Part shown: positions 16,899-50,213 of the stretch, piece by piece
Layout: each line of letters starts with the position of its first letter
Numbering within the stretch: position 1 is the first letter of the stretch
Source of the DNA: Candidatus Spongiisociaceae bacterium
GTDB lineage: Bacteria > Actinomycetota > Acidimicrobiia > Spongiisociales > Spongiisociaceae
DNA: 64,000 nt
Reading direction: 5' to 3'
NCBI GenBank assembly: GCA_965262915.1
Contig: OZ253564.1
Span: forward strand, 1,248,001-1,312,000
Translations under genes and position numbers: made by a program
Notes under the pieces: model-generated
Told to the model about the DNA's origin: nothing
The model's input: only the letters and a program-made list of their open reading frames with translations
The model's database searches: none

Positions 16899-17090
16899 GT
16901 CCGGGGGTCAAGGCTTCGGTGCTGCTGAACCCGGTCTCTTTCAGCCGACAAGCGCCGCGGTTGCGAGCCGGTCCCCAACCCAGCCGCCGAGGTCGATCTG
17001 CGCCGTCAGTTCCGAGACCGCAGAGCGATGCTGCCCGCGTTCACCGACCCTGCACAAGCTAAGTCGAGGATAACTCCGGAAGGACATACC

Positions 17091-19037: not shown

Positions 19038-19041
19038 GGCA

Positions 19042-23179: not shown

Positions 23180-23480
23180 ATGGACGAGTTGGTGTGGTTA
23201 CCCACACCAACTCGAGGCAGAGGGCAATGATTTGCTGCGGGAGATGATCCGTAGCTTCGCGCAGGGGTTGATGTGATCTGTGGAACTCCGTAGGGTGAGC
23301 GGAGCCCGGATCGGGTGAATCGTCGTAACGGGTATCGGACCCGCCGCTGGGACACCCGGGTGGGTTCGATCGAGTTGTGGATTCCCCAAGCCGCGGCAGG
23401 GTTCGTACTTCCCGGAATGGCTGTTGGATACCCGTACCCGTTCGGAGCGGGCGTTCGTGCAGGTCGTGACCGAAGCCGAT
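23180..23480 (+). pseudogene. IS256-family transposase N-terminal remnant
   Basis: NRRNGYRTRRWDTRVGSIELWIP, then frameshifted SYFPEWLLDTRTRSERAFVQVVTEA. Confidence 0.8.
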
Positions 23481-23628
23481 GTGAGGATGAAGATGAACGG
23501 ACCAAGCCTTTGGCCTAGACCTTCGAATGGCATGGCACCGGGAAATCATACTCTCGAATCGTTCCCAGATGCTCGACGCCGTTCCACGCCCCGATCACAA
23601 CGTCGTGGCCTTGTGAGCGGCCACAGCA

Positions 23629-23844
23629 TCACGACGGGGCACGGCATGAGCGCCCGGTGCGACGCGCCCACACCTCAATATCGCGCCTCAACCACAACCG
23701 GCACTGTCCCCGCTCGATGGCTGGAGGTGGGAAGTTGCCATACCGCGAGCGGTAGACGCTGACCACACTCCTAGAGGCGAGACCAAGGAGAACGGCCACG
23801 TCACCCGCGTCCACAAGATCATTGGGGTCTATCAGCTCGGGCAC
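23629..23844 (-). CDS. AlpA/excisionase-like winged-helix protein
   Basis: LVDAGDVAVLLGL...FPPP...RLWLRRDIEVW; probable GTG start at 23844. Confidence 0.7.
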   Translation of the reverse strand: MPELIDPNDLVDAGDVAVLLGLASRSVVSVYRSRYGNFPPPAIERGQCRLWLRRDIEVWARRTGRSCRAPS

Positions 23845-24066
23845 GTGCGCCGACTGTAGTTGACGCGAGCCTCCGACCCCGGCAGAGTTGGAGAGCTCCA
23901 ACATTTCGGCTAACTTGGGGAAGTCAGGGTTGAGTTGGGCGAGCATGAACGGTCTGCTAGGTACTGCGATCAGCCCTTGGCGAGCAGGACTGTACGCTGA
24001 GGTCCCGGCTCATCGTTCGAATGAGGATTGAGGGCCGGTTGCGAGGGTGGGGTAAATGTGGCGTCT

Positions 24067-25593
24067 ATGAGTAAGAATTGGTCCCGGGAGGTGGGAGATC
24101 TCGTCCTGCCCGAGAATTTCGTTCTAGCTACGCGTGATACGGGATACCGTTCCCCTGCCTATGCCCTTGCCGAACTCGTAGACAACGCGATTCAGGCTGG
24201 CGCGAGTCAGGTCATAATTTGTATCAATTCTCTCGAGAGCACCGAGCATCCGATCGAAATCGAGGTGGTCGACAATGGGCACGGTATTAGGGAGGACGAA
24301 CTCCAGTCGGCGCTCGCGTTCGGAGGGACATCTAGGTTCGACGACCGTTCTTCGCTCGGCCGATACGGTATGGGACTCCCAAATGGGGCCCTGGCTCTGG
24401 CGCGACGGGTGGCAGTGTGTTCTTGGGATGGCGAGGCCGCGTACAGCACCCAACTCGATGTGGATGCGATCGCTGAGCGTCGTTGGTCCGGGATCCCAAA
24501 GCCTGTACGGAGTAACCCCCCGACCTCGGCGGTGGGCTTCCCGAGTGGCACAGCTGTCCGCTTGACATCTTGTGATCGGCTTTCGTATCGGCGAGTTGGA
24601 AATTTCGTATCTCGTATCCGGGTGGACTTCGCGCGTATCTACCGCCGCTTCCTGGTACAGGACCTAACTCTCACGGTTAACGGGATACCCGTAAGGGCAT
24701 TCGATCCCCTTTTCCTCAATACAGGTGATGGAGTAGGTAGTGGACGCCAGTTCGGCAGCATCTTGAAATATGACCTGATCGGTGATAACGGCCAAGCAGG
24801 GCGTGTTACCGTTCTGTTCTCGGAACTTCCGGTGGAGAGGTGGTCTCCGCTGACAGCAAAGGAGAAGCGATTGATCGGGATCAATGCCAGTCCGTCCGTG
24901 TCGGTCATGAGAGCAGGGCGTGAGATTGATCGAGGCTGGTTCTTCATGGGAGGAAAGCGACGTGAGAACTACGACGACTGGTGGCGTTGCGAAGTCTCGT
25001 TCGATCCCGAGTTGGACGAACTCTTCGGTATCACGCACGCGAAGCAGCAGATCTCCCCGAGGAGCGACCTTCAGGCCGTGTTGACACCCGATCTCGAAGC
25101 TGTGGGAAGGGCGCTCAACTCTAGGGTGCGCAAGCGATTTGACAATATGAAGTATGCTGCCCCACTCAACGAGGCAGAGAAGAAGGCTCTTCGAGCCCAC
25201 CATAGGCTTCCTCCACTGCCGATATCCGATGGGCGTAGGTGGGCTAGATCGACAGATATAGCAGCTCACTACTTCGTAGGAACGACGCTGTCCGTGGCCC
25301 CATATCGGATTACCGTAGGCTCCCTTGAGTCGACCTCTGCCTATGAACTCTTCAGCTGTGACGGACAGCTAAACCTCATATTGAACGATCATCATCCCTT
25401 CTTTCGAGACCTCTACGAGCCGCTTGTCGGGCTCGGAACCGAACGAGGACCTAAACTAGCTTCTTACCTAGCCTTGACCATACTTGCTGCGGCGCGCGTT
25501 GAGGCCGAGATTATCGATCCGGCGGATCAGGCTCAGTTCAGTAGGTTGCGCCAGCGATGGAGTGATATATTGGCCAGTTTTTTCAACGCATGA
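24067..25593 (+). CDS. MORC-family GHKL ATPase
   Basis: DTGY...ALAELVDNA, DNGHG, GRYGMGL, GT motifs plus an S5-like region RAGREI...ELDELFGITHAKQ. Confidence 0.88.
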   Translation: MSKNWSREVGDLVLPENFVLATRDTGYRSPAYALAELVDNAIQAGASQVIICINSLESTEHPIEIEVVDNGHGIREDELQSALAFGGTSRFDDRSSLGRYGMGLPNGALALARRVAVCSWDGEAAYSTQLDVDAIAERRWSGIPKPVRSNPPTSAVGFPSGTAVRLTSCDRLSYRRVGNFVSRIRVDFARIYRRFLVQDLTLTVNGIPVRAFDPLFLNTGDGVGSGRQFGSILKYDLIGDNGQAGRVTVLFSELPVERWSPLTAKEKRLIGINASPSVSVMRAGREIDRGWFFMGGKRRENYDDWWRCEVSFDPELDELFGITHAKQQISPRSDLQAVLTPDLEAVGRALNSRVRKRFDNMKYAAPLNEAEKKALRAHHRLPPLPISDGRRWARSTDIAAHYFVGTTLSVAPYRITVGSLESTSAYELFSCDGQLNLILNDHHPFFRDLYEPLVGLGTERGPKLASYLALTILAAARVEAEIIDPADQAQFSRLRQRWSDILASFFNA

Positions 25594-27563
25594 CCCACGA
25601 ACTGCCGAATGGGGAATGGGTTACTCTGGAAGGACCACGGGGAGCGACAGATTCGTGTCGTCAACGGTTTGTCATTCTGGCACGCAAACTTGAATTGAGT
25701 AGTAGATCTGAGAACCTACTAAGAACGATAACCGCACTCGAAGAGTCCGACGATCTTGTACTGAAGAGTTCTCTTTCCGTACTCGTTGACTTAGTTGCCC
25801 AAGGATGGAGACTCCGTGTGGATCACAGCACCATTCTGGTACATCCTCCGATTATTAACCCGGATGTAATGCAGGAAAAGGAGCGGGTTCGCCAACTTGA
25901 ACTTTGGAAACGAGCAGAACAACTTCGGAAGCCATCGGTACGTTCCTTTATCAAGAAGATGGAGACTCCTAAATATCACGACGGTCGCTTCACGTCAATC
26001 TTCGACCTTCTTCGGGATGGGCAAGAGCTTGTTGTATCACTCAAGGCGGCGGCCTCCGCTAGTTGTCGTGAAACAGCACTTCGCGACTGTATAGATCCGT
26101 ATATCCAAATCGTTGAGGCGTCTAGCCGATGTGCATATACGGGCCTACGCCTACTCGACATATGGCGCTACTTTCGACACACTTGGATAACTCAATACAG
26201 TACAACGCCGGGTCGGACGATGATACTACTTGTCCGTGATGCGGCGGCAGAAAACCATCCTGTGATCGGTATAGCTGCGCTAGCGTCGCCGATCATCCAG
26301 ATCTCGGAGCGAGATACATGGATCGGATGGCAACCGGATTCCTATCTTGATCTTATAGAGCGAGATCCAACGGCAACCCATGCTACGTGGCTGGTATCTA
26401 GGCTTAGAGCTAGCCTCGCAGAACTGTATCTGGACGATCTCATTGCAGACAGACTCTATTGGCCAGCGCTTTGGCTCGAACCGGATCCGGATAAGATCGA
26501 TCGGTTACGAGCAGAATCCAAGAGATGTCGTACGAACCACGCTCGCTTCTCACGTCCTCAAGACCATAAACGAGCCGACTCGGATCCCGACAAATGGCTG
26601 GCTCGTGCCGAGACCGATCTCTTCAGGAGCAAGCGGTGTGCGGTTCTGGCAGATCTCCTATTTGCTCGATCAGCCCTGCTCCCATATATCACCCCGGTAC
26701 CATCCAGAGCTGGCCTACAAGCAGCAATGACCGACCGAAACGCTCGCCGTGCGATTCTGGGTGTCATTCGCCGTGCGAAGGCAGCCTCCGTAGGTTCTGT
26801 GATGGCTGACCTCTCGGTCTGTGGCGCGATCGCACCCTACAACGCCCTACTCGGTGGGAAGCTTGTCAGCATGCTGAGTGTCAGCCCGTCGGTTATCCGC
26901 GCCTACAAGGCCAAGTACCAGTCCTCCCCGAGCGAGATTGCCTCTTCGATGGCTGGTCGCCCCATCTACCGTAGCGTGGACCTCGTCTACATTGGGACGA
27001 CTTCGCTCTTCGGGTCAGGGTCCAGCCAATACAATCGCATACGACTCCCAGAGGGTGTGCTTCGGGGGGCGACTGGCTCTGTAGAATTCAAGAGGCTTGG
27101 TCGGTCAAGGTCGTACGGTACCTCCCATCTGTCGAGTCGCTCCATGAAGTATCTCGTCAACTTGGCCGAACTGCGTGCTGGCGGCACCCGCATCAACTCA
27201 ATCTTCGGTGAGGGCGCCAACCCGAAACTGAGGAAGATGCGTGAAGGTATCGACCAACTGGGGTGGCCGTCGGACAAGTTGCTCCGTCATGGCCGGACCC
27301 GACTCGTGTACGGAGTACCGCTTGTTCACAACCTACTTCCGTACCTTCTTGACGTAGAGCGCAAGCCGGCGTATCTATTCGACGTAGACAACTTGGAGGA
27401 TACCGACGAGATCGCTCGCTATTGGACGACTCGGTGGCTCGCCCGCCGGAGTCGGCGGCCCGAGGTTCTTGATGAAGTAGCTCGGCATCGACTCTCCCAC
27501 CCCATCAGCCACGGAGCGAAAGTCGATCTACCCAGTGCCTCTCCGGAGAGGGGCCAGAGCTAA
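25590..27563 (+). CDS. druA: DUF4338 protein, Druantia DruA-like
   Basis: WRYFRHTW, PGR..LLVRD...HPVIGI, CGAIAPYNALLGGKLV, TTSLFG...SQYNR; ATGA overlap with the MORC gene. Confidence 0.8.
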   Translation: MTHELPNGEWVTLEGPRGATDSCRQRFVILARKLELSSRSENLLRTITALEESDDLVLKSSLSVLVDLVAQGWRLRVDHSTILVHPPIINPDVMQEKERVRQLELWKRAEQLRKPSVRSFIKKMETPKYHDGRFTSIFDLLRDGQELVVSLKAAASASCRETALRDCIDPYIQIVEASSRCAYTGLRLLDIWRYFRHTWITQYSTTPGRTMILLVRDAAAENHPVIGIAALASPIIQISERDTWIGWQPDSYLDLIERDPTATHATWLVSRLRASLAELYLDDLIADRLYWPALWLEPDPDKIDRLRAESKRCRTNHARFSRPQDHKRADSDPDKWLARAETDLFRSKRCAVLADLLFARSALLPYITPVPSRAGLQAAMTDRNARRAILGVIRRAKAASVGSVMADLSVCGAIAPYNALLGGKLVSMLSVSPSVIRAYKAKYQSSPSEIASSMAGRPIYRSVDLVYIGTTSLFGSGSSQYNRIRLPEGVLRGATGSVEFKRLGRSRSYGTSHLSSRSMKYLVNLAELRAGGTRINSIFGEGANPKLRKMREGIDQLGWPSDKLLRHGRTRLVYGVPLVHNLLPYLLDVERKPAYLFDVDNLEDTDEIARYWTTRWLARRSRRPEVLDEVARHRLSHPISHGAKVDLPSASPERGQS

Positions 27564-27700
27564 CTGGCGCCGCGATGGGCATCCACCGGACCATGGATCT
27601 ACGTCTACGGGACGAAGGTCACACGGCTCGACCATAATAGGGGCGTGGAGGTCTCGAACGGCAGCGCAACCTCAATGACCGGGGCACGGGGGTAGCGACC

Positions 27701-30574
27701 ATGAGCGGGTTGCTCGCAGACTGGCACCGTCAGCTCCACGAGAACTTTGGATCGCTACGTGATGAGCGTGAGCGTCGCACGCCGGGACGCCCAGTCTTCG
27801 CCCTTGAGCACGGGCTCGACCGTCACTCGGAACTGCCCGAATTGATCCAAGTTGTGCGCGGCTCCATAGCTTCTGGCAGGATGCTCGCAACATCCCACTG
27901 GCTTCCGATCATTGTGTACGCGGCTGAGATAGGATACGACTATCAAGGCGACGCATACTGGCCTAGATTTGAATCGAAGACTCCATGTTGGGAACAGCTA
28001 GGTAATACAGGTCGCGACTACATCCGGGCGACGTTCAAGGATTTTGCTGAGTCGTACGGGGGCGCGAGACCATCCGGGCGATGGGCTGAGTGGTTCACGA
28101 TAATCGCATGGCCGATAACACATGCTGTACTCCCCGTCTACCTCCAGCGACAACTAGCGTTACTACTACACAACTATCGGAATGTACTGACGGCCGAGCT
28201 GCTGCATGACCACGACGAACTCGGAAAGCGTTTGGCTAGCCATAGCCACAGTTCCTCAGAGCGGTTCAGGAACTTCGCGGAGAACTCATCGCTGCTAGGA
28301 CTCGTAGCAGCCTCGTTACTATCCGACGACGAAGAGGATTCGGGCCTGCTCAGGTCTTCGACCCTACATAGGATCGTCAAAGATCTGCACAGCGAACGCC
28401 AAGCGGGTGAATGGCTCCTAAGCGCGCGACGGGTAGCCGACACAGTTAGACGCCGTGGATTCCTTTCGAACAGAAACGCGCCGAGGCCACTACCCAGGTC
28501 GAGCAGTTCGGAGCAGGTGCAATCGCCTCGTCTCGACCTTGAATTGGAGGTCCGACGGAGGGGGCCGGAATGGACGGTCTACGTCACCGTACCCAGCCAT
28601 CAGTCCCTAGCCCGGCGGTTCCCCGACGTTGGACGTGAACTTCGGCGGCTTCGCTATCGAGTAGATGGTGTAACTACACGAAGGGTACAACCGCGAGGCG
28701 CCCTCATGTACGAACGGGGACCGTTCCCGCTATCGCGTTATCCCATACCGGGTACCTCCGTCATAATCCCGGAAGGGGCTACCTTCATAGTGAAGCAGCT
28801 CTTAATTGATAGCTGTAAGCTCCCTGGAGGCCCTTGGCTTTTCTACCTTCGCGAGTCCGGCCACGGAACAGAGATTCGTACCAGGCGGGTCCGGCCCGGA
28901 CACAACTATGTGGTCCTCAGCGATCCGATGGCTCAGATCGCGTCCCGATGGTGTGTGCCTGTTCCGCTCTCAACAGAAGGCGTACAAGCTCACCACCTGA
29001 ATATCCCTGAACACGTCGACTCTTCGATCATTAGAGAATTGCGAGAGCTGGGTATCGGTGTAGTCTCTGATGCCCACGTATGGCCCGCAGGTCTTGTTCC
29101 TGCACGTTGGGACGGAGCAGGACGAGCCGCTTGGCGGTTGGGTGATAGCCCGATCCTCGGGATCCAATGCACTCGAGCAGCATCCACTTGCCGCGTCACC
29201 GTCGGGGAATCTACGATCGAACTATCTTGGCCTAACGACAGCGATATGCTCTTCCTTCGGCTGGTGGATCTTGATATCGGTATCCATCTGGTGGAAGTGA
29301 TGATTCTTTCTGATCCCTCGGACGAGTTGATAGCTGAAGGACAACTTGAAGTAAGCATAATAGAGCCAGCAGACAGCATGGTGGACTCTGGGGCTCGCCA
29401 AGGGCTTAGGATTATGAGCTATCCGGCCCAACCGACGTTCTCTGAGTTGTGGACTGGCGACGCTGTAGTTGTCGCTGATGGTCCTCTAGGTGAGAGGGTC
29501 AAGTTCCAGGTCTCTCTTATGAATAGCCGGGGGAGTCCGGAGGTGGCGCTCGCTCCTTTCTCGTCCGAGTTACCGGTAGATGACAAACGATGGCGAGCTC
29601 TATGGCGCACTGCCCAGGGAAACTGGACTGCTGACCGGGGCGATAACAAGTTGCACGCGTCTTCCGCCCAGGCTGAAGAACTGGTGATTTCAGCATCCAA
29701 CCCGATACTCGGGTCGTTCCAGATAAGAGCTGAGCGGCCATTCTCTGCCCTCCGTTGGTATGGAGGAATTGACCGTGAGGGCCCGTTTGCACGGTTGGTT
29801 GATCAAACCGATCGTAGAGATATCGTAGTTGACTATTATGACCTACGTTGCCCGGACGAGAGAGGCGAACCGAAACTCGATGAGAAACGTCAGGTACGGA
29901 GCGTTTACGGCGGCTTAGTAGTAGCGAGTATTCCTGGCCTAGAGACGGGGATAGTCCTACCAACCCATATATCGGGCAATTTACTAGACCTGCGGCGATC
30001 TAATACTCGTCCCTCCATAAATATCGATGACAGGTGTTCAGAGTCTGTGTGTCGCCTGATACAAATAGCGAGGTTATGGACCCATACTGGGCTAGCCCTG
30101 GATAACAGAGCAGCAATTGTGCAGTCCAAAGTAAATGACGCACTTGTGGCAGCATTAGGTAGAATGATCTGCGGAGGTCGGTGGTGGCGTATTATAGAAA
30201 ATTCTGTAATGAAGGGTACTCGTCCGACGTATCACGACTTGCTGATCGCAGCTGGAGATACACCCGAGGAATGTGAAGTAGCAGGTCGACTGCAACAGAT
30301 CGCTACAACAGTATCAGCGGACCCAATCGAACGGTCCATACGGTTCTTCAATACACTAGGGCTTAATCCAGAGTTCTCTAATACAGTTACGAATGTAGTT
30401 CGGCTAGCAACGGTACCCGGGGCGCTCATACTCAACGAAAGAGAGGTGGGGCAATCGATAGAGTTAGTTCTGACTGCACCATCGATCTATCGATTGGCGA
30501 GACTATTCGTATTGACAATTGCCAACTACGAGAACGATGAACCGTTTGCGACCTTGAGGAACTGGCCGTGGTAG
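27701..30574 (+). CDS. Large hypothetical protein, putative Druantia accessory subunit
   Basis: 957-aa ORF between druA-like and helicase genes; subunit identity inferred from position only. Confidence 0.7.
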   Translation: MSGLLADWHRQLHENFGSLRDERERRTPGRPVFALEHGLDRHSELPELIQVVRGSIASGRMLATSHWLPIIVYAAEIGYDYQGDAYWPRFESKTPCWEQLGNTGRDYIRATFKDFAESYGGARPSGRWAEWFTIIAWPITHAVLPVYLQRQLALLLHNYRNVLTAELLHDHDELGKRLASHSHSSSERFRNFAENSSLLGLVAASLLSDDEEDSGLLRSSTLHRIVKDLHSERQAGEWLLSARRVADTVRRRGFLSNRNAPRPLPRSSSSEQVQSPRLDLELEVRRRGPEWTVYVTVPSHQSLARRFPDVGRELRRLRYRVDGVTTRRVQPRGALMYERGPFPLSRYPIPGTSVIIPEGATFIVKQLLIDSCKLPGGPWLFYLRESGHGTEIRTRRVRPGHNYVVLSDPMAQIASRWCVPVPLSTEGVQAHHLNIPEHVDSSIIRELRELGIGVVSDAHVWPAGLVPARWDGAGRAAWRLGDSPILGIQCTRAASTCRVTVGESTIELSWPNDSDMLFLRLVDLDIGIHLVEVMILSDPSDELIAEGQLEVSIIEPADSMVDSGARQGLRIMSYPAQPTFSELWTGDAVVVADGPLGERVKFQVSLMNSRGSPEVALAPFSSELPVDDKRWRALWRTAQGNWTADRGDNKLHASSAQAEELVISASNPILGSFQIRAERPFSALRWYGGIDREGPFARLVDQTDRRDIVVDYYDLRCPDERGEPKLDEKRQVRSVYGGLVVASIPGLETGIVLPTHISGNLLDLRRSNTRPSINIDDRCSESVCRLIQIARLWTHTGLALDNRAAIVQSKVNDALVAALGRMICGGRWWRIIENSVMKGTRPTYHDLLIAAGDTPEECEVAGRLQQIATTVSADPIERSIRFFNTLGLNPEFSNTVTNVVRLATVPGALILNEREVGQSIELVLTAPSIYRLARLFVLTIANYENDEPFATLRNWPW

Positions 30575-31695
30575 CAGTCCAGCTGACACCGGACGAGGTT
30601 GTACAATCGTCTGTTAAATCCCTTGGATTTGATAAAGAACTCGCTGATTTTGAGACTCCTGAGGTGGTCGTAGAAGCGATAAGAAGAGCATCCTCATTCA
30701 TGTGTCCTACTTCTCCGCGCCGTCTTGTCCAGGCAGTTGTGGAGGTGATGCGGGGACTAGTATCGTCAGAACTATCTGACGATGACGAGGCATCGGTCAG
30801 CGCTCTTCTCGAGGCCGTGACCGCTTACGGAGACCTTGTGGAGGTGCCTCTCGAAGATGAGTCAGGGATCTCACGCCGTGTAGTGTTCCTCGGACCCCCG
30901 TCGTATGTGACAGTTTCGTCAACGATCGTACTCTTGGTCGGCTTACGAGGTGAGGGCCTTGCGCTGTTGGACGAATTGCTCAGCAAGCGTGTCGTGCACC
31001 AGGTCCACGTACGGCGTATGGAACTCGAACAAGGTGAAAACGCAGCGGCACTGTTCAGATCGAGCGATCTCCGGGAGCTCAGTATTGACCAGTGGCTTGA
31101 GCATCCTCGATTCTGTACTCCTCGTGATGTGTACGAAGAGTACAGCAAAAGCCTCAATGCTAGTGGTCCATCCGGGACCATCGAAGGATGTAGAATTCTC
31201 GATCCAGGAAAGTCTCCGACTTACTACCGAGGCCGCTGGCGCTCACCGACGCGTAAGGACTTCGGTCGTTTCGTCGCCCGGCGACCGGTTGAGTTCGGAG
31301 CGGACCTGTGGTGCTTCGCTGAGCTAAGCGAAGGTAACGTCGAGCGGCTCATCGACTTACCCGTGCACCACCTCCTCAACCGAGGCTGCGACGAGGCTTG
31401 GCGTCTGCAAGCGGCGGTAGACTACCTCAACGGAAACCCACAGACAGTCCGAGTTGGGTCCGCCTATTGCTCAAGTGACGTACTTCTTCACCTACGATCA
31501 CCGGTCCCTTCCTGGGCCCAACGCTACCTTGAAACCCTTGGTAGGCCTCTCCCTCGACAACGAGGTAGTCTCATCTCATTCAACATTGCCAAATGTTTGC
31601 TCCAAGACGCCCTGCGGTTTCTAGGCGAATCGATGTGGATTGACCACGAGTACGATGATGGCAGATATGAGACACCAGAGCCTGACGATCGGTGA
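30568..31695 (+). CDS. Hypothetical protein, putative Druantia accessory subunit
   Basis: 375-aa ORF overlapping both neighbours, directly before the helicase. Confidence 0.7.
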   Translation: MVAVQLTPDEVVQSSVKSLGFDKELADFETPEVVVEAIRRASSFMCPTSPRRLVQAVVEVMRGLVSSELSDDDEASVSALLEAVTAYGDLVEVPLEDESGISRRVVFLGPPSYVTVSSTIVLLVGLRGEGLALLDELLSKRVVHQVHVRRMELEQGENAAALFRSSDLRELSIDQWLEHPRFCTPRDVYEEYSKSLNASGPSGTIEGCRILDPGKSPTYYRGRWRSPTRKDFGRFVARRPVEFGADLWCFAELSEGNVERLIDLPVHHLLNRGCDEAWRLQAAVDYLNGNPQTVRVGSAYCSSDVLLHLRSPVPSWAQRYLETLGRPLPRQRGSLISFNIAKCLLQDALRFLGESMWIDHEYDDGRYETPEPDDR

Positions 31696-34600
31696 AACGA
31701 CCGAGGAGATCCGTACCGCCCTCAAGGACTACATCGAAGCCGCCTATCATATAAGTCATCCGACTGTTGTTACACAACGTAGTCGATTACTTGACAAGCC
31801 CGGGGTGATCAGCCAGGAGCCCTTTCTCGAGAGCACACCTCGCTACCAGCTGGGTGATAGATTCGCCTCGTTGCGGATTCCGAGAACAGCAAAAAAGCTT
31901 CTTACACAGATGGCAGAGGCAACGCTGGTCCACGACCCCCCGTATCGCCATCAGGCCGAGGCGATTGAGGGAGTAATCACAGATGGGCGGAGCCTGGTGG
32001 TCACCACAGGCACTGGTTCGGGCAAGACCGAGGCATTCCTGCTCCCGATCCTCTCAAAGCTAGCTGACGAGGCCAGCCTGCGGCCGTGGTCGTTCGCGAT
32101 GCCCGCTGTCCGCGCCCTGCTGCTCTATCCCATGAATGCACTTGTCAACGACCAGCTTGGCAGGCTTAGGCTCATGTTTGGTGACTCACTCGTCTCGGGA
32201 TCCTTCCAAGAGTGGGCTGGCCGGCCCGCTCGGTTCGCTCGCTACACGAGCCGTACCCTGTATCCCGGCGTTAGGTCTGTGAGCAAAGACCAGCTGCGCC
32301 TAAAGTCCATTGCGGACTTCTATGTCAAGTTGGTGGAACAGGCCCAGGACCTCGACGACCCGAACAGGAGGGCAGCTGCCAGACTCATCAAGAACCTCCA
32401 AGACCGGGGAAAGTGGCCAGCCAAGCCCGATTTAGCTACGTGGTATGGAGGGACTGGAGCTCGATGGCGTAACAGGGCCGGGCAGTTTCAGCGTGCTGTC
32501 ATGCTGCCCGATGATCCAGAACTCCTGACGCGTCATGAGGTGCTTGCAGCGCCGCCGGATCTGCTGGTAACCAACTACTCGATGCTCGAGTACATGCTGA
32601 TGCGGCCGCTAGAACGACCTATCTTCGACTATACACGAGAGTGGCTCATCAGGAATCCGGAAGAGCGGTTGTTGCTCGTCATCGACGAAGCCCATCTCTA
32701 CCGTGGGGCCGCTGGCACCGAGGTTGCACTTTTGCTTCGGAGGCTACGGGATCGGCTTGGAATCGCGGCGGATCGCCTGCAAGTCATCTGTACAAGCGCA
32801 AGCTTCCATCATCGCGAGTATGCCGCAAACTTCGCAGCGGACCTGGCAGGCAAGGATCTCGGGGACTTTATTACCGTGACAGGCGACCTCGCCCTCCGCT
32901 ACAGCGCCGCTGTTGGGAGCGCGAGCGATGCGGCACTACTTGCATCCATCTCGCTCGCCGACTTCTACGAGTCCCAGTCCGAAAGCGATCGGCTGTCGGC
33001 TGTCAAGTGCTTTCTTGTTTGTCGTGGCGTAGACACGGATCAACCGTGCAGCCGAGCGCTGTATGAGGCACTACACGACTATCCGCCGATGAGCCAACTG
33101 GTGAATACCACCATGCGTGAGGCTCTCTCTATTGACGAACTAAGCCGGGAACTCTTCCCAACAGCAGAAGAGCACTTAGCCCAGCGAGCATTGACGGCGC
33201 TCGTAGGTCTCGGTAGTTTCGCCCGCAGGGATCCTAAGCAGCCCGGGCTCCTCCCATGCCGCGTCCACTCCTTCTTCCGTGGGCTTCCTGGACTCTGGGC
33301 GTGTTTGGATGAGGAATGTACGGAACGGGACGAGACCCTCGACCCCGGCCCGGTGGGGGCTCTCTACTCGCAGCCACACGACACTTGCCGTTGCGGGAGT
33401 CGGATATTCGAATTCTATACCTGCAGAAACTGCGGAGCTGCCTATGCCCGTGCTTACACAGATAACGTGGAATGTCCCGACTTCTTGTGGGCCGAGGCAG
33501 GCAGTTCATTTCGGTCGGCTGCAGGGCACATTGAGGAACTGCAGCCGCTTGACCTGCTGCTGGAGTCGCCGTCCACTGACGATGTCGAGCTAGCGGACCT
33601 TGACTTAGTTACAGGTCGCATTAATCCAGAACGCCTTGGTAGCCGGGTCCGCAGCGTATACCTAAAAGCGGAGCGTCTCAACCCTCCAACCAACGAGGAC
33701 GAAGAGGAGCCACATTCGACTTCGAGTCTCGGTGAGTTCCGGCCGTGCGGTGTGTGCCGCCAGCAGGCTCCTTTTGGTCGTACGTTCGTTCAGGACCATC
33801 AGACAAAAGGCGATCAGCCCTTCCAGGCCCTTATTACGAGACAACTACAGGTCCAGCCCCCAAGCCCTGCACCTGCTACGGACTTTGCTCCACTCCGCGG
33901 GCGGAAAATTCTAGCTTTCTCCGACTCTCGCCAGACCGCAGCCCGCCTGGCACCCAAACTCCAAGATTACTCGATGAGAGACGCTTTGCGTCCGTTGATC
34001 CTACGTGGATGGCGGGATCTCAGTGGTATACCAGGGCTCGAGGATCAACTCTGCCTCAACGACCTGTACCTCTCCATCCTCATCGCCGCGGAGTCTATGG
34101 GTGTTCGTCTCCGGCCCAAACTCAAGGGCGTCGAATCCCTCCGCGCTGCGTTGACGGTCCGAGAGGAACTGGAGTCCGGCGCATTGGACGACCCATTCAA
34201 GACACTTCATCTCGTAATGGATGTGCGTAGTGAGAGACCGCCGGAGTCCTTGCTGCGCGCAGTGAACGAGATTCTCACTAGTCGCTACTTTGGTCTCCAA
34301 TCGCTTGCACTCGCGTCCGTTTGCGAACGTGGTAAGTTCACCTCCAGAATCGAGGAGCTCCCAGATCTGGCTGTTGCCTTTGATAGTGAGCAGAAGCTGG
34401 CGCTCGCACGGATGTGGCTTTTCTACTGGTCCAACCAGGGCTACTGGTTCCCAACCATGACCGAGGCGTTCTGGCAGACGCCGCGCGGGGTCCGCCCGCA
34501 CTCTGGCAGCTTTCAACCACTCAAGCGGTGGCTAGCAGACGAGACCACATCCAGAGTATTCAGAAAGCATTGGCTACCCATGTTGCTTAGCCTCTTCACC

Positions 34601-37222
34601 GAAACTGTCGCTCCAAGAAAGCACCGTATCCTTGCTCAGAACCTTGCCTTAGATCTAGAGGGGACTTGGGCGTACTGCCAGGCCTGCCGGTCAACCCAGC
34701 GTCCCTTCCCTGGCTCCAACAGATGCGTCTTGTGCTGCAGCGTTGGGTCGGTCCGAGAAATCGACCCAGACAACGACCAGGTCTTTATAGCCAGAAAAGG
34801 CTACTACCGAGCGAGTTCAGTACGCGCCCTGTCAAGCCCCTCCGAGCCCCCCTTGGCTCTAATTGCTGCGGAACACACAGCTCAATTGAATGCCGCTGAG
34901 ACGGATGAGGTGTTCTCGCGAGCGGAGCAGTACGAACTTCTGTTCCAGGATGTAGACATCGGCTTACCTATCCCCGGAAATCAATCCCACGCCGCTATCG
35001 ACGTCTTGTCATGTACGACTACAATGGAGGTGGGTATCGATATAGGTTCTCTCTCTGGTATCGCTCTCCGGAATATGCCGCCCTCTCGGTCGAGTTATCA
35101 ACAACGTGCAGGTAGGGCAGGTAGGCGCGGTAATGCTGTTGCCACTGTCGTTGCCTTCGGAAGTGCCGACAGCCACGACGAGCAGTACTTTCGTGAGCCA
35201 GCCGCTATGGTTCGAGGGAGAGTTGATGATCCAAGCCTAACGCTCGATAATGAAGAGATAGCGCAAAGACATGTGACTGCCTACCTGTTCCAGCGCTATC
35301 ACCAAGATCGACTCCCGACCATCGAGCCAGAGGATCAACCACACCTCTTCGCTGTACTGGGAACGGTAGCCGAATTCTTGGAGACGGCTTCTGAACTAAA
35401 CCGGTGGGATTTTGAAGAATGGTTGCGAGCCGCCGAGTCTGATCTATACATGTCAGTAGAGAGTTGGCTCCCGCAAGAGATCGATCCGACCGATCGCGCC
35501 ACTCTACTAGACCACTTCGTAGATGAGACCCTCCGGATAGTTGATGATGCCCTCTCGACTAGACAGCCTTTAAACGCTCCAACTTCCGACGCCTCTGTTC
35601 GTACAGGAAGGGCTGAGGGGACTTACCATGACGAGTTACAGCTCGAGGTACAGGCGGAGGTAGGCGAGGAGTCACGAACAAGTGGGAGCGGAGTCGAAAA
35701 CCTTCTTGATCGCCTACTCTATAAGGGTGTACTACCCCGATATGCATTTCCGACAGACGTCGTTTCTTTTCATATATTCGATCGCAATCGGTCTACCCGA
35801 TTCCGGGCCGCGTTCGAATACGCGCCTAGTCAAGGCTTGCCAGTTGCCCTATCCCAGTATGCTCCGGGCAAGGAAGTCTGGATCGATGGAAAACTTTGGA
35901 CGTCGGGGGCCCTGTACTCGCCCATACATGAGGACCGTTGTGAAGCGTGGCGTCAGCGTCGTCTCTACTTCGAGTGCAGTGTGTGCCGCTATGCGTGCAC
36001 AGTCGGTCAGACCGAGGCAGACAAGGGTGAGATAAGGGATTGTCCTGCATGTAGGACAGCAGCATCGTTCGGTACAGCGAAGAACTGGATGCGTCCCCCA
36101 GGATTCGCTCATCGGTCTACTGTAAAGGAGGGTACGTCGCCCGAGGATCAGCCAATAAGAAGCTACGCCACCCGTGCAAAACTCGTGGCGGAGGGACCAG
36201 CGGATCCTGATAAATGGCAGCCCGTAACATCCTACCTACGCGAATACTTCCACCGCACCCATCTCTTGGTGACGAACAGTGGCCCGCGCCGGGAGGGTTA
36301 CACTTACTGTACTAAGTGTGGCGTGATCGCCCCCACGGCGACCCCTGATTCCGGCATCTCGGGTGAGCACCCCAAGCCGTATCCCGACGAGCGTGAGCCT
36401 AACTGCACCGGTTCTGCAGCAGCAAGGGGACTCGTTCTAGGAACAGACTTCATCTCCGACGTACTTCTGATCGGACTGAAGGTCGGGCCACCGATGACAC
36501 TTCAGCCTGGGTACCTTGCAACAGATGTTGCACTCAGAACACTCGCAGATGCGATCACCATCGCAGGCTCGCTGGCTCTTGAGATCGAGCCAGGCGAACT
36601 CCAGGCTGAGTACCGTCCGGCTCTCGCTCCTGATGGCGATTCAGGGCTCGAGGCCGAGATTTACCTATATGATACCCTCGCTGGAGGCGCAGGATTCGCT
36701 CGACGTATCGGAGACATGGGCCTCCGACTCTTTGAAGATACAGTACAACTACTCGAAGGCTGTCCCTCGGAGTGCGATCGGTCCTGCTACCGCTGTTTAC
36801 GTAGTTTCAAAAACAGATTTGAACACGACCTACTTGACCGACATGTCGCTGCGAGCTTGCTCCGATACTTGCTCCGCGGTGAGGAACCGACGTTGACGAA
36901 GAGCAGGCTCGAAGTCTCCACAGATCGACTCTTCGAAGACCTGGACCGCCAGGGCCTTGAAGAAGTACAGTTCACTCGGAATACCCTAATAGATATCACG
37001 GGGATCGGTAGGATTGAAGTACCGATCTTGGCCCGATATGCTGGCGGCGATCTAATCATCGGTCTTCACACACCACTCACACCTGGCTATGCGGCAGACC
37101 CAGCCCTACGTGATGTAGCGGAGTACAGTACTACGACACCGGTGGTATTGGTAGACGAGATTCTTGTGAGTCGCCACCTACCTCGCGCAAGTATACAGGT
37201 CCTTGAAGCAGTAAACGCTTGA
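31640..37222 (+). CDS. druE: DEAH-box helicase with DUF1998, Druantia DruE-like
   Basis: TGTGSGKT, YPMNALVNDQ, IDEAH, TTTMEVGIDIG, QRAGRAGR and DUF1998 YDTLAGGAGF...CDRSCYRCL; probable start ATG 31655 or 31667. Confidence 0.88.
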   Translation: MTTSTMMADMRHQSLTIGETTEEIRTALKDYIEAAYHISHPTVVTQRSRLLDKPGVISQEPFLESTPRYQLGDRFASLRIPRTAKKLLTQMAEATLVHDPPYRHQAEAIEGVITDGRSLVVTTGTGSGKTEAFLLPILSKLADEASLRPWSFAMPAVRALLLYPMNALVNDQLGRLRLMFGDSLVSGSFQEWAGRPARFARYTSRTLYPGVRSVSKDQLRLKSIADFYVKLVEQAQDLDDPNRRAAARLIKNLQDRGKWPAKPDLATWYGGTGARWRNRAGQFQRAVMLPDDPELLTRHEVLAAPPDLLVTNYSMLEYMLMRPLERPIFDYTREWLIRNPEERLLLVIDEAHLYRGAAGTEVALLLRRLRDRLGIAADRLQVICTSASFHHREYAANFAADLAGKDLGDFITVTGDLALRYSAAVGSASDAALLASISLADFYESQSESDRLSAVKCFLVCRGVDTDQPCSRALYEALHDYPPMSQLVNTTMREALSIDELSRELFPTAEEHLAQRALTALVGLGSFARRDPKQPGLLPCRVHSFFRGLPGLWACLDEECTERDETLDPGPVGALYSQPHDTCRCGSRIFEFYTCRNCGAAYARAYTDNVECPDFLWAEAGSSFRSAAGHIEELQPLDLLLESPSTDDVELADLDLVTGRINPERLGSRVRSVYLKAERLNPPTNEDEEEPHSTSSLGEFRPCGVCRQQAPFGRTFVQDHQTKGDQPFQALITRQLQVQPPSPAPATDFAPLRGRKILAFSDSRQTAARLAPKLQDYSMRDALRPLILRGWRDLSGIPGLEDQLCLNDLYLSILIAAESMGVRLRPKLKGVESLRAALTVREELESGALDDPFKTLHLVMDVRSERPPESLLRAVNEILTSRYFGLQSLALASVCERGKFTSRIEELPDLAVAFDSEQKLALARMWLFYWSNQGYWFPTMTEAFWQTPRGVRPHSGSFQPLKRWLADETTSRVFRKHWLPMLLSLFTETVAPRKHRILAQNLALDLEGTWAYCQACRSTQRPFPGSNRCVLCCSVGSVREIDPDNDQVFIARKGYYRASSVRALSSPSEPPLALIAAEHTAQLNAAETDEVFSRAEQYELLFQDVDIGLPIPGNQSHAAIDVLSCTTTMEVGIDIGSLSGIALRNMPPSRSSYQQRAGRAGRRGNAVATVVAFGSADSHDEQYFREPAAMVRGRVDDPSLTLDNEEIAQRHVTAYLFQRYHQDRLPTIEPEDQPHLFAVLGTVAEFLETASELNRWDFEEWLRAAESDLYMSVESWLPQEIDPTDRATLLDHFVDETLRIVDDALSTRQPLNAPTSDASVRTGRAEGTYHDELQLEVQAEVGEESRTSGSGVENLLDRLLYKGVLPRYAFPTDVVSFHIFDRNRSTRFRAAFEYAPSQGLPVALSQYAPGKEVWIDGKLWTSGALYSPIHEDRCEAWRQRRLYFECSVCRYACTVGQTEADKGEIRDCPACRTAASFGTAKNWMRPPGFAHRSTVKEGTSPEDQPIRSYATRAKLVAEGPADPDKWQPVTSYLREYFHRTHLLVTNSGPRREGYTYCTKCGVIAPTATPDSGISGEHPKPYPDEREPNCTGSAAARGLVLGTDFISDVLLIGLKVGPPMTLQPGYLATDVALRTLADAITIAGSLALEIEPGELQAEYRPALAPDGDSGLEAEIYLYDTLAGGAGFARRIGDMGLRLFEDTVQLLEGCPSECDRSCYRCLRSFKNRFEHDLLDRHVAASLLRYLLRGEEPTLTKSRLEVSTDRLFEDLDRQGLEEVQFTRNTLIDITGIGRIEVPILARYAGGDLIIGLHTPLTPGYAADPALRDVAEYSTTTPVVLVDEILVSRHLPRASIQVLEAVNA

Positions 37223-38427
37223 CAGTAGGTTCCCAGTTCTCGACATCAATCGGACTACGTGGCGTCTGGCCCGGGCCTCCCAGCTACTGGAGTTTTTCGA
37301 GCCTTGAAGAAATGAAGGCTTGCCCACGTCGATTTGCTCTTACTCGTGCGACCTACGCGCAGATCTGGGAGCTAACAGGTTATCCAGACCGTATAACCGA
37401 GCAATCGCTCTTCGGTATCGTGATACACAAAGTTATAGAGACCGTGCTCGGCAGCTTCCTTTCAGCGGGATGTACCTCCGTGTCGGACCAACAAGCTATT
37501 GCCGTAATGCGGAAACTGGGGGGGTACACGGCGATTGTAGCAGCAGAAGTCGGTAGAGCTATCGAACGGCTTCAGTTGAATCCACGGATGGAATCGCAAC
37601 TCAACTATCTAGATGTAAGGCTTCGGCGACGGATGCCCGAAATAAGGGTAGCAGTCCAAAAGCTTATCGCACGTTCCTTACTAGTGAACTCGGAGTCAAT
37701 AGGTGATGGAGGTAGCGGCGTTTGGGCTAGTCGTGCGCCACGTCGTATCAGCAGAGGTTCTCACTCTGAGGTTACCCTCGTCGCCGAGGCCGAGCGGTTC
37801 ACTGGACGTGTGGACCTGGTGACTGTACGAGATGACTCTGCTGATCTGTTGGACTTCAAGTCTGGTAAGCCATCTGATCGTGACGCGCGGCAACTAACTT
37901 TGTATGGGTTGCTATGGGTTAGCGACAAAGTGGCGAACCCCGATCGACTGCCTGTGGGAGCGTTGACAGCTATGTACCCAGATTGTGACCGGTCCGTTCC
38001 CGTGCCCACGCAATGGCAAGCCGTGAAAGTACAACTCCGGGAAGAGATCGAGCGAGCAGAAGAGGAACTTGCCGAAACGCAACCTAAAGCCAACCCGTCT
38101 ACAGAGTGTTACTATTGTCCAGTGCGCCATATGTGTGATGAGTACTGGGGATCACCATTCATACGACGTGACGGAGTCTCATCTTCATTTACCGACATCG
38201 AGGTATTACTACAGCAACGCAACGGACCCCGGAGCTGGAAAGCGCGACTGGTTGCCGACGCCTCCGACATCCTTCTGAGAACCTCCAGCGAGGATGGGGC
38301 GTTCGCGCCTGGACAGCACTTACGTATCTTGGATATCGCACTTGTCGATTCCGGCGATACGGATTGGCCAGTGGCTACTGCAGTGGCTAGTACAGAGGTA
38401 TACAGTGTCGCTGGCGCGATGAGGTAA
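37219..38427 (+). CDS. RecB/Cas4-like PD-(D/E)XK nuclease
   Basis: SFSSL...CPRRF, GRVDL, DFKSG, QLTLY, CYYCPVRHMC; 4-nt overlap with the helicase stop. Confidence 0.82.
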   Translation: MTVGSQFSTSIGLRGVWPGPPSYWSFSSLEEMKACPRRFALTRATYAQIWELTGYPDRITEQSLFGIVIHKVIETVLGSFLSAGCTSVSDQQAIAVMRKLGGYTAIVAAEVGRAIERLQLNPRMESQLNYLDVRLRRRMPEIRVAVQKLIARSLLVNSESIGDGGSGVWASRAPRRISRGSHSEVTLVAEAERFTGRVDLVTVRDDSADLLDFKSGKPSDRDARQLTLYGLLWVSDKVANPDRLPVGALTAMYPDCDRSVPVPTQWQAVKVQLREEIERAEEELAETQPKANPSTECYYCPVRHMCDEYWGSPFIRRDGVSSSFTDIEVLLQQRNGPRSWKARLVADASDILLRTSSEDGAFAPGQHLRILDIALVDSGDTDWPVATAVASTEVYSVAGAMR

Positions 38428-38429
38428 CC

Positions 38430-38830
38430 AGGAACAGAACATTGTACGCGTTGGTGAGATAGGCGTCCGCTGCGAGCTCTCGGACGAGTTTGTCATCGAT
38501 GCTGGGCTGGGCGGAGAAGTCAAAGTCTTCGACCTGCCCGGGTCTTGAGAAGTTAGCGAACCTGAGCCGGCCACTCCATCGACGGTGTTAGTTGCTTTGA
38601 CGTCGACCCGAAGCAGCTACTCTAGAAATGCGGTATGACCGATGCTGCTTCGGTTGGCTTGTCCGAGGTGAGCGGGCAGCGCTTCGGCTGCTGCTGCCAG
38701 CTTGAGGTAGGCGAGATGGCTCCGTAGTTACTGGTAGACCGAGTCTTCGCTCATCGGCGCTTCCGATCATGGTTCTGCGGGTCGATGTGCCGTTGGTAGA
38801 TCCCAAGATCAATCACAGCCTCGTTGTGGG
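38430..38830 (-). pseudogene. istB: IS21-family remnant (istA end and istB N-terminus)
   Basis: HLAYLKLAAAAEAL...FLE*LL and RLRFANF...VEDFDFSAQPSIDDKLVRELA with stops and a frameshift. Confidence 0.7.
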
Positions 38831-40219
38831 CCACGCTGGCTCCGGTGTCAGCTGCGATCGCCAGCGAGTGGATTCTCCTCTCCGGAGTGATTGAGGGAAG
38901 TCTTCGAATCCGTAGTGGGGGTGAACTGGTCAGGTCTCTATTGTCACGGGGATTCCGATCTGTGTAGCGATTGGCGTGTAGAGGTCTACCTCGACTTCTT
39001 CGGTGTAGAGCGATACGAGGAGTGCATAACGCACCGACAGGTTGTTCCGGTCAGCTCGGTTGTTGTTCTTCCACCATCCACTGACTGGGTACACACCGAG
39101 AACCCCGCAGTCGCCGAGGTCGGCGGCTGTCCCTTCCCACAGGTCCGCATGTAGCGACCCGACATGGCGACTCTGGGGTCCGACAAGCCATTCTGGTTCC
39201 TGTCCTGGACTGTTGTGGGTTCCACCCTCCTCTACTTCGGCGAGACGATTCAAACGGCGTTGGAACTCTACGGTCGTCTCGCCGGGTCGGCGGATGTCGA
39301 ATCTCAGACTGTGGGATGGGTATACGTAGCGGCTTCTCCATCCACGATTCGAAGCATTGGGCTCGATGAAGTAGCTGAGAGTCACCCGCAGCCGCACGGG
39401 TGTTTCGCCAAGATCGAGGAGCTGGTCCCGGGGCCACGGGAGGTCGTGGGTATGCATTTCCCGAAGGCGCGCCTGGCTCCTGTTGTCTTGATCGAAGGGC
39501 TGGATGTGCGATTGGGCGATCAGTGTTACGGCATTGGAAGCACTCCGCAGCACCCGCTCATCGGTGGGGACGCCGAACCCGTAGCGCCTGAGTAGCTGTC
39601 GGCGCTTAGTCTTGGTCGGCGCTTGGTCGATTGCGGCCGCCATAGGCGGCGTCCACTCAGCAGCATGTACGAGCAGCCCTCGGATCGTCTCAGGCCACAG
39701 GTTGGGATAGTTTGCAGCTACCCGCCCGGCGAGGCGTGCTGCTTGAGCCGCCGCAGCGCTGGTCGCGTTTGCGGTCGTGAGCGGACGTCCCAGGGGTTCC
39801 AGGTAGGAGGTTGTCGCGATCGAGACCACATCGTGTTGGTCGAAGTGGGTGGCGTCCGGCGATACTAGGAGGTTGCCGCCTTCCATCACGATGTCCGGCT
39901 TGAGCGGCCAGATCTTAGAGTAATTGACGGATGTCCTGCTGAAGGGTGACAGTTCGCCGCGAGGTGCCAACGGCGTGTATCCAGCGAAGTCGGGATGTTG
40001 CGGCGTGACAGCGAGTTCGGTATAGGCTCCGACGGTCAAAGCGTTCCACGATTGGCCAGGATCTTCGATCGCCAACGTGTCACACACTTCCAGGAAGTTT
40101 GTTTTATGGCCGTCGCGGACGTTCCCTCCTGAGACGATAAGTAGTCGACTGGATTGGGAATCGGGGTCGGTGAGCAACTCGATGCCCGCTTCGGTTGCGG
40201 AAACGTCTGTGCCGAAACT

Positions 40220-41652
40220 GGCTCATCGGATTTCAGTGGGGAGTGACCGATGGGAGTAGGTCCCAGTTGGGTTTCCCCGCGTAGAGAAGGGCGCGGATTC
40301 GGTAGTTCGCGAAGTTGCGGAACCCGAACGCTGCTCGTTTGATCCGTTTGATGAGGTTGTTGAGGGCTTCGGTGGGTCCGTTGGTTACCTTCGAGATGTG
40401 CCAGTTGGTGATCTGGGGGGTCCAGCGGGCGATGGTACGACCCAGCTTGTTGATCTCGGGTGGGCAGGATTCGTGTTGGAGGTCGTCTGCGAGCTGGAGG
40501 GTGTATCGGAGAGCAAGGACCGGACTCTCGATCCCGTAGATGCCTCGTACCGTCTCTTTCGCGTGCCAGGCTGTGCGCACTTCCCCGTAGGGGTCACCAG
40601 CATCGAGGAGACCACGCAGCCGTATTTGACCCCGGTCGCTGATCCTCTCATGCGCAGCGGTTAGGAGCCGCCGTATCCGATACAGCGGGTCATCCTTGCG
40701 GCCTCGATGCCCGAGGGTTTCGTTTTGGACTCTTCGTCGTACCTCGTCGAGACGCTGGTTGGCGAGGCGGATGACGTGGAACGGGTCCGCTACCTGCAGC
40801 GCGTGCGGCAGCACCCTGTCATACGCCTTCCGATACGAACCGGACATGTCCAACACCGCCCAGCGGATAGCCTCACACCATTCGGTGGGTTGTGACCGGA
40901 ACCAGGCTGCGGCGCTTTCTGCTGTTCTACCAGGGACTATGTCGATCAGCTGGTGGCCGCCAACGTCGACGACAGAGGTGCACCAGACTTTGGTACGCCA
41001 ACGGCCCCGACGCCAGAACAACGTCTCGTCCACTCCCACAGCTTCGACGGTCCCGACCCGATCGGTGTCTGCTTCCAGCAGCGCTTCGCCCCAGCGGCCA
41101 ACCTCTTTGTTCACCGTATGCCAATCACAACCAAGTTCTGCGGCGACCTCGTCGACCGAACGGCCCCGCCCACCCACCTGGATGGTCACCCACCGGGCCG
41201 CTCGGGATGTCAACAACGCCCGTTGGGGACCAATCTTGGGGTCTTGTTCGATGAACGATCTGAGCGCACAGTCGGGGTTCGGACATGTCCAGCGCCGTTT
41301 CCGCCACCGCAGCCGCACAGGCCGGCCGAACGCCGGTAAATCCACCAACACAACCGTCCGATAGCCCTTCGACCACACCGACCCGCCACAGGACTCACAC
41401 AACGGCCGGGGCTTGCGGGACCGGATCACCACCTCCAACGGTGCCTCCTCGCCCGGGTCGTTGATCCCTACCAGATCAACCTCACCTAGGCCTACCAACT
41501 TCTCGCACATGCGCGTAGGATCAGCTTCCACAGGGGTCCTCCTGCCTCGGATGTCATTACCAACACCCGATTATGGAGGACCCCTCCTCACTTCTGGTGG
41601 ATTCCAACTCCCCCTGGCAGATCCCCTACTCCCCACTCATTTCCGAAGAGCC
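40220..41652 (-). mobile_element. ISL3-family insertion sequence, 1433 bp
   Basis: Inverted ends GGCTCATCGG.../GGCTCTTCGG...; 8-bp target duplication CCGAAACT at 40212-40219 and 41653-41660. Confidence 0.95.
40233..41531 (-). CDS. ISL3-family transposase
   Basis: Zinc finger CESCG...CPNPDC, GVDE, LDMS, DPFHV, TNGPTEALN; intact 432 aa. Confidence 0.95.
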   Translation of the reverse strand: MEADPTRMCEKLVGLGEVDLVGINDPGEEAPLEVVIRSRKPRPLCESCGGSVWSKGYRTVVLVDLPAFGRPVRLRWRKRRWTCPNPDCALRSFIEQDPKIGPQRALLTSRAARWVTIQVGGRGRSVDEVAAELGCDWHTVNKEVGRWGEALLEADTDRVGTVEAVGVDETLFWRRGRWRTKVWCTSVVDVGGHQLIDIVPGRTAESAAAWFRSQPTEWCEAIRWAVLDMSGSYRKAYDRVLPHALQVADPFHVIRLANQRLDEVRRRVQNETLGHRGRKDDPLYRIRRLLTAAHERISDRGQIRLRGLLDAGDPYGEVRTAWHAKETVRGIYGIESPVLALRYTLQLADDLQHESCPPEINKLGRTIARWTPQITNWHISKVTNGPTEALNNLIKRIKRAAFGFRNFANYRIRALLYAGKPNWDLLPSVTPH

Positions 41653-49554: not shown

Positions 49555-49768
49555 GATTATCTCGTTACACAATTCTTTTCAAGGTTGATGGCGACTCTTT
49601 TTAATGTTGATGGCGACGCGATCTAGTCGGCCCTTCACGGGACGCTGGGTTTCGTCGGTTCTTGTTGTCGGTGTCCGTTCATGTTAGGAGGCGGATTCGG
49701 GCGGTGTAGCTGCGTGGGTACCTCGTCCTCCAGACTACGGCTCGACTGCATCATGCCAAGTAGTAGAG

Positions 49769-50170: not shown

Positions 50171-50213
50171 GGTTGGTGGAGGCTGCGTGGTGCGATCATG
50201 GGTCTCCCTTTCG

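Follow-up and report, generated by a model that had tools for sequence, protein, structure and literature searches.

The window analysed here, 64,000 nucleotides of contig OZ253564.1 from a Candidatus Spongiisociaceae bacterium, carries at 24067-38427 six co-oriented genes that form a new variant of the Druantia system, closest to its type I. The operon consists of two modules: a core encoding a 957-amino-acid (aa) protein, DruD, DruE and a nuclease, and a cassette that joins a MORC-type ATPase to a long form of DruA. All six genes very probably belong to one defence system, a role that we infer from the defence island around them. The features are as follows.

24067..25593, + strand: gene 1, 508 aa from its ATG, putative GHKL ATPase of the MORC/paraMORC type; first gene of the cassette.
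25590..27563, + strand: gene 2, long-form DruA (DUF4338) with a predicted GNAT fold, 657 aa; second gene of the cassette, candidate self-DNA modifier.
26331..26807, + strand: helical insert of the long DruA (spacer W247-D407, 159 aa); modelled MORC-binding surface.
27701..30574, + strand: gene 3, candidate scaffold of 957 aa in place of DruB and DruC, DruH/YjiT-like to judge by its model and fold searches.
30568..31695, + strand: gene 4, DruD, 375 aa; matches PADLOC DruD1 with E 6.7e-105.
31640..37222, + strand: gene 5, DruE of type I, YprA-family helicase with DUF1998/MZB, 1860 aa.
37219..38427, + strand: gene 6, 402 aa, predicted AddB/Cas4-like PD-(D/E)XK nuclease with an Fe-S staple of four cysteines; probable effector.

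In the window all six reading frames are open on the + strand, and four junctions overlap: ATGA at 25590-25593, TTGA at 37219-37222, and those between genes 3/4 and 4/5. The single intergenic gap, 137 bp, separates genes 2 and 3. Homologues of gene 5 align from about residue 10, and ATG 31667 may be its true start. The upstream flank carries IS3-like remnants (HTH_21). Direct reading thus bears out an earlier description of the locus, made by a model from the letters alone (the original prediction), as six intact genes amid insertion sequence (IS) debris; the ELVDN motif of the ATPase and the D212-F-K214 motif of the nuclease that it pointed out are also present. A contig of 15,082 bases from run X1, which may be the source sample, covers 23444-38525 with zero differences to the window; contigs of a second study, X5, extend over most of the operon but leave out about 32.2-34.8 kb, and show substitutions and no indels.

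The grouping is not a chance one, because the whole set recurs in other genomes. We aligned 61 DruD homologues out of 120 listed, drew 46 genome and 78 metagenome loci around DruD, and mapped the six window proteins onto every fetched locus. The full set is found in 27 of the 46 genome loci, across several phyla; this count takes in frameshifted copies from metagenome-assembled genomes (MAGs) and four loci (L017, L054, L056, L061) completed by whole-genome searches. The other 19 divide into eight in which the nuclease is the one gene missing, ten with a short DruA of about 400 aa, and one contig that is too short. MORC stands directly upstream of the long DruA in 35/35 genome loci, and a search of the ten short-DruA genomes, several of them MAGs of unknown completeness, found it in 0/10 at E<=1e-10. 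Among the metagenome loci, 25 hold MORC and long DruA, five a long DruA cut at the edge and 12 a short DruA without MORC; the remaining 36 have no DruA in view. Both neighbourhoods whose recurrence had been proposed as a check, MORC-druA and druE-nuclease, are therefore widespread.

Within this sample the carriers are mostly Actinomycetota, and the named loci include the culturable Microbacterium, Arthrobacter, Kribbella and Nonomuraea; the set also occurs in Acidobacteriota, Longimicrobium, Nannocystaceae and one Rhodospirillaceae MAG. Its spread is patchy: a full-length long DruA was found in 4 of 401 genomes of the window's phylum, the window's own included. A first genome scan with a single DruA protein as query gave no match. 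When a seventh conserved gene was sought among the neighbours, no family turned up in more than nine loci, the largest neighbour clusters being a gene pair, PDC-M02, or kin-specific flanks.

Several observations divide the operon into its two modules. In the 35 genome loci with the cassette, it converges on the core from downstream in 31, lies co-linear upstream in three and is divergent in one; the gene order of the window is thus a minority arrangement. For pairwise protein distances the correlation of MORC with DruA is 0.91 and that within the four core proteins 0.84-0.93, against 0.67-0.80 across the modules, MORC and DruE giving the lowest value (r 0.67); these figures come from 31 loci with six near-complete proteins, with most MORC rows lacking the N-terminus and with kinship not removed. 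On a FastTree phylogeny of 70 DruE proteins (three outgroup rows included, duplicates and broken reading frames left out), DruA switched between long and short forms at least eight times and the nuclease was gained or lost at least six times, some of its absences being locus-edge effects. In ten genome loci the short, MORC-less DruA takes the place of the cassette.

The nuclease is independent of MORC: it is present in four of the ten short-DruA loci and missing from eight of the 35 MORC loci. The proposal of the original prediction that MORC and nuclease work together with the helicase needs correction on these points, since MORC goes with DruA in form, orientation and distance and not with the helicase. 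In the place of the nuclease, flanked by druE and druA, five Streptomyces/Kitasatospora genome loci (L028, L029, L031, L033, L034) and L101 carry a two-gene unit, which in L028 was identified as the PDC-M02A/B pair (L028:10121-11883).

With Druantia type I (DruABCDE, as on Pseudomonas putida pKF715A, L141) the set shares a DUF4338 DruA, DruD and a DruE1-type helicase. It differs in the insert of about 145 aa that lengthens DruA, in the single 957-aa protein that stands for DruB and DruC, and in the added MORC-type ATPase and Fe-S nuclease; the canonical type I DruE falls outside the window's DruE clade in the tree. A PADLOC scan of the six proteins, which the original prediction had suggested, matched DruA1, DruD1 and DruE1 and gave no match to DruB1 or DruC1. 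According to the accessible part of its description, the 2021 PADLOC model of type I requires all five of DruA1-DruE1 (PMC8565338), and the locus is not called by that rule. What stands of the predicted undescribed subtype is therefore a variant outside the type I model, and what is corrected is the pairing of MORC with the helicase and with the nuclease. The PADLOC long-DruA and DruD models fit the window clade, so such proteins were already present in earlier collections.

We found no printed description of the arrangement, which the images of Bell 2025 Fig. 1 or PADLOC Fig. S4 could depict: in the extracted text of the latter, 'HATPase' and 'Cas4/exonuclease' nodes stand near Druantia gene names, the links between nodes being outside that text (PMC8565338). 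Our literature search found no paper that treats Druantia together with MORC. GHKL, MORC and DUF4338 go unmentioned in the accessible portions of the Bell 2025 text and supplements (PMC12458937), and the accessible portions of 10.64898/2026.05.12.722862, PMC11090510, PMC13639185 and PMC7251935 do not describe the arrangement.

The nature of gene 3 escaped the original prediction. The 957-aa protein has no match in Pfam, PADLOC (DruH included), NCBIfam or PHROG. Its model, with a pLDDT (local distance difference test, predicted) of 87.5, shows a helical N-terminus, tandem Ig/Fn3-like domains (best match at Z 10.2, root-mean-square deviation (rmsd) 2.1 over 90 aligned) and a helical C-terminus. 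The Atlas lead YjiT_N concerns 21% of the members of one cluster, with a score of 0.94 and recognition below the reliable level; hhalign against E. coli YjiT gave E 0.096. As far as the available texts go, DruH has Fn3/Ig domains (10.64898/2026.05.13.724758) and is placed within the YjiT family (10.64898/2026.05.12.724681). Taken together, the modelled fold, this assignment and the Atlas lead make a DruH-like identity plausible, though not proven. A fusion of DruB and DruC was considered and rejected, as profile comparison with the canonical proteins gave probabilities of 0.3% and 0.2%; the DruB1 and DruC1 models match neither the window protein nor any of the 17 homologues compared, whereas the control L141 matches both strongly. 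At the level of sequence profiles gene 3 thus appears to be neither DruB nor DruC, a very remote structural relation being not excluded. In L039 the gene occurs twice, the additional copy (L039:2136-5273) lying upstream of the other.

The partial descriptions at hand give type III (DruH-DruE) a comparable layout, with a partner of about 1000 aa, bearing tandem Fn3/Ig-like domains, upstream of DruE; its nuclease lies inside DruE, and no extra host methylation was seen with it (10.64898/2026.05.12.722862). The DruE of the window is, however, far closer to type I: gene 5 scores 1918 bits against PADLOC DruE1 (PDLC00013) and at most 633 against types II-IV (336-589 for DruE3). Its DEAD, Helicase_C and MZB domains are above cut-off, with Walker A, DEAH, motif VI and CxxC motifs intact.

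Gene 6 matches PDDEXK_1 (E 5.4e-20) and, weakly, Cas4. The original prediction took a separate PD-(D/E)XK nuclease to be new to Druantia; PADLOC DruK profiles nevertheless exist, to which gene 6 has a weak and partial match (E 1.5e-11, 42 bits, residues 181-312). With DruK and the AddB/Cas4 nucleases it has in common the PD-(D/E)XK core, the RecB-type QxxxY and four conserved cysteines. Residues C35, C297, C300, C306, E184, D199, K214, Q225 and Y229 are invariant in 58/58 aligned homologues, and together they match an E-D-DxK-QxxxY core plus 1+3 cysteines, which we take to be the motif of AddB/Cas4-like Fe-S nucleases. The protein belongs to a separate family of about 410 aa, with 750 representatives at 50% identity (E<=1e-30). 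The C-terminal Vsr nuclease domain of type I DruE is predicted to be inactive, according to the available part of Bell 2025 (PMC12458937); alongside the invariant residues of gene 6, this makes the separate nuclease the natural candidate for the effector.

In the cassette, gene 1 matches HATPase_c_3 (E 5.6e-20) and contains the four GHKL motifs: ELVDN at residues 36-40, DNGHG at 69-73, GRYGMG at 98-103 and GTAV at 161-164. The family consensus GVSVLRAGREI fits 10/11 positions of the S5 motif GhXhhpXXRhl, as given in the part of Iyer 2008 at hand (PMC2292703), with R285 invariant; in the window copy S replaces the G of this motif. By these motifs gene 1 is classed as a GHKL ATPase of the MORC/paraMORC type. 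MzaB of the Mza system matches it only weakly (64 bits against a cut-off of 850). The locus resembles the MORC/paraMORC restriction-modification operons in the same available part of Iyer 2008 in placing a GHKL ATPase beside an SF2 helicase and a nuclease of the restriction endonuclease fold; those operon types, three in number, use Rad25, SNF2 or Z1-type helicases and classical methylases, whereas the window has a YprA helicase and a GNAT. Two MORC-type ATPases are found near a long DruA at L190:10527-24058, L191:10523-17302 and L083:18196-20154; L190 adds a 2094-aa DruE1 and a NERD-helicase, and L191 has no helicase.

Gene 2 matches PADLOC DruA1 (PDLC00001, a 675-position model) with E 2.9e-207. 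The closest of 48,161 chains to its model (pLDDT 91) is phage Mu Mom (8bv8; Z 8.2, rmsd 3.9, 172 of 202 residues), and nearly all of the 50 VIA matches listed are of the acyltransferase type, at Z 6.6-8.2 over residues ~164-602. DruA is thus predicted to have a GNAT fold, which the original prediction missed, and the accessible part of Rakesh 2024 likewise classes DUF4338 as GNAT (PMC10853773). Foldseek returned nothing for the model against the PDB at E<=0.001, and none of the four new alignments, used as profiles, had a significant match among PDB sequences. Mu Mom is a tRNA-dependent DNA adenine aminoacyltransferase encoded by a phage; DruA shares its fold, but is cellular, three times larger and carries inserts, with no sequence-profile match. 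The hhalign comparison of the two was non-significant and is no evidence either way, as the Mom alignment is shallow (45 near-identical loci, Neff 1.2). In a by-eye register, SQY481N of DruA, with Y481 invariant, lies opposite VY159QASN of Mom. The conserved residues of DruA include D407, K424, T470, Y481 and R483.

Apart from the one helical insert, long and short DruA can be aligned over their full length. The W247-D407 spacer measures 156-165 residues in 39/39 measurable MORC-adjacent copies and 13 in short DruA. A complex model of MORC 150-508 with DruA 1-640 scored 0.67, compared with 0.00 for the best of three controls; the mark used for such models is passed by 116/157 solved complexes and 2/215 mismatched pairs. 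At least 89% of the contacts are shared between runs, with partner pLDDT of at least 79, and the confident contacts on DruA (residues 277-293, 312-322 and 343) all fall within the insert. The model supports, short of proof, binding of MORC to DruA through the insert.

We now propose a restriction-modification-like system of two modules, in which the long DruA would be the writer that acylates or otherwise marks host DNA, probably at adenine. MORC would dock on the helical insert of DruA and, as a DNA clamp driven by ATP, load DruA or move it. The DruH-like Ig scaffold, together with DruD, may help to recognise invading, unmarked or single-stranded DNA, which DruE would unwind and the Fe-S nuclease degrade, standing in for the presumably inactive nuclease domain of type I DruE. 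To this mechanism as a whole we give a probability of roughly one half. The role of DNA writer falls to DruA because of a signal in canonical type I: as far as the available text of Ojima 2024 goes (10.1101/2024.04.14.589459), PacBio calls N6-methyladenine (m6A) at CAGCTGNC only in cells with the system, no methylase gene was found and the gene behind the CAGCTGNC signal is stated to be unknown; DruA is the gene there with a transferase fold. We suppose that PacBio might read a bulky N6 adduct as m6A. DruA in one form or another is present in 45/46 genome loci (the exception is a contig of 4.8 kb), which is what an obligatory self-mark would predict.

A bolder and more doubtful extension is that MORC and the long DruA form a portable DNA writer, a GHKL clamp on a Mom-related acyltransferase that makes an undescribed base modification as self mark and is swapped as one unit among restriction cores. 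The surroundings of the long DruA elsewhere speak for the proposed mechanism as well: SspF-G-H-like restriction genes follow it directly in L193 and an SspF-like gene does so in L194, both plasmid loci, and an SspH-like gene lies downstream of it in L192. A self mark would be required there, and these loci fit one that serves several restriction cores. The regions, with SspF/G/H-like or FtsK genes downstream, are L192:11130-22943, L193:14701-24530, L194:8692-19160 and L195:8854-12528. Some of these long DruA have a long C-terminal extension (1052, 1225 aa), and L193 carries a divergent DruE1 and two unclassified genes.

A number of observations weigh against the proposed mechanism. Mom is tied with ordinary protein and small-molecule GNATs (Z 8.2 compared with 8.0 and 7.5, inside the tie margin). 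Of the residues that serve as a test of the Mom family (R111, S124, D149, R151), R111 and S124 are essential in Mom according to the accessible part of Silva 2026 (PMC13219725); by eye they fall on V410 and on G422/G423 of DruA. Apparently not kept, they indicate that Mom chemistry is not simply conserved and that DruA likely has a different one. The link between insert and MORC is not absolute: G252, one of the four genomes with a full-length long DruA in the window's phylum, combines it with the core and lacks both MORC and nuclease, L192-L195 also have the insert without MORC, and L198 and L199 place MORC beside an insert-less DruA, outside a DruE context. The nuclease, missing from some MORC loci, cannot be the only effector. 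Finally, related carriers enter all locus counts as non-independent rows.

The alternative that survives best, which we consider unlikely though worth keeping in view, makes DruA a toxic or regulatory acyltransferase acting on protein or tRNA, restrained by MORC until infection and serving as an abortive back-up to the core. It would suit the structural neighbours of DruA, mostly protein or small-molecule acetyltransferases, the DndF-fused DUF4338 GNATs that are read as co-effectors in the accessible part of Rakesh 2024 (PMC10853773), a cassette usually transcribed in its own direction, and the MORC-DruA pairs without DruE in L191, L198 and L199. The near-constant company of DruA and the core argues against it, as does canonical type I, where DruA without a methylase accompanies an altered host DNA modification signal (Ojima 2024, 10.1101/2024.04.14.589459, in its available text).

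Less likely still, DruA would be the DNA writer and MORC, which the original prediction placed with the helicase, would serve restriction itself by clamping DNA, or looping it, from the recognition site to DruE or the nuclease. In the available part of Iyer 2008 (PMC2292703), an SF2 helicase is present in about 70% of the neighbourhoods of prokaryotic MORCs and a role of MORC in the restriction step is suggested for the operons that combine them; DruA may also recruit MORC to the core in the role of a recognition subunit. Yet MORC follows the form and distances of DruA and not those of DruE, and cores with a short DruA have no MORC. That the four-gene core and the MORC-DruA pair are independent units merely co-occurring in defence islands is improbable: order and orientation vary, other genes stand between the units in L056 and L061 and the pair also occurs alone, but the linkage holds in every long-DruA genome locus, often with touching stop codons, a short DruA replaces the absent cassette, and no other neighbour family is comparably frequent.

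The operon lies in a defence-rich stretch with a GC content of about 55%. Just upstream is an intact-looking type III restriction-modification pair (mod, res; 17028-22125, +), and downstream an IetAS system (AAA ATPase and S8 peptidase; 38930-43868, -), whose ietS is broken into two parts by an ISL3 transposase (40233-41531); the depth of this IS is very high in both runs compared. Further genes are of CBASS-like (patatin phospholipase, SMODS/DncV-like nucleotidyltransferase and a third reading frame, 51385-53966, +) and ABC-three-component type (DUF2326, CTD10; 651-3663, -), with HTH and IrrE/M78 peptidase genes at 49769-51140 and a 590-aa reading frame at 47800-49572 (-) that matches nothing in Pfam or PADLOC. 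A fusion protein of 1612 aa, TrwC relaxase-helicase with DnaG-type primase (7397-12235, +), suggests that the island is carried on an integrative or mobilisable element; relaxase-like reading frames flank several related loci too, and no tRNA genes were found in the window. Divergent from the operon, a 105-aa reading frame at 23629-23946 (-) looks HTH/excisionase-like by eye, with no Pfam match and no homologue among the neighbours of related loci.

Altogether, a widespread subtype emerges that the 2021 PADLOC rule for type I, as accessible to us, would not call. Its scaffold suggests a DruH-like component common to types I and III, and its predicted interface would give a MORC-type ATPase of prokaryotes a single specific partner. 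The operon falls of itself into a candidate writer of two genes and a candidate attack module of four, which can be studied separately. For the way in which type I Druantia discriminates self from phage, this variant offers a candidate writer. If the bolder extension is true, the missing writer of Druantia type I would be identified, restriction-modification would here proceed by acylation and not methylation, and bacteria would offer a parallel to the eukaryotic MORCs that help to establish DNA marks.

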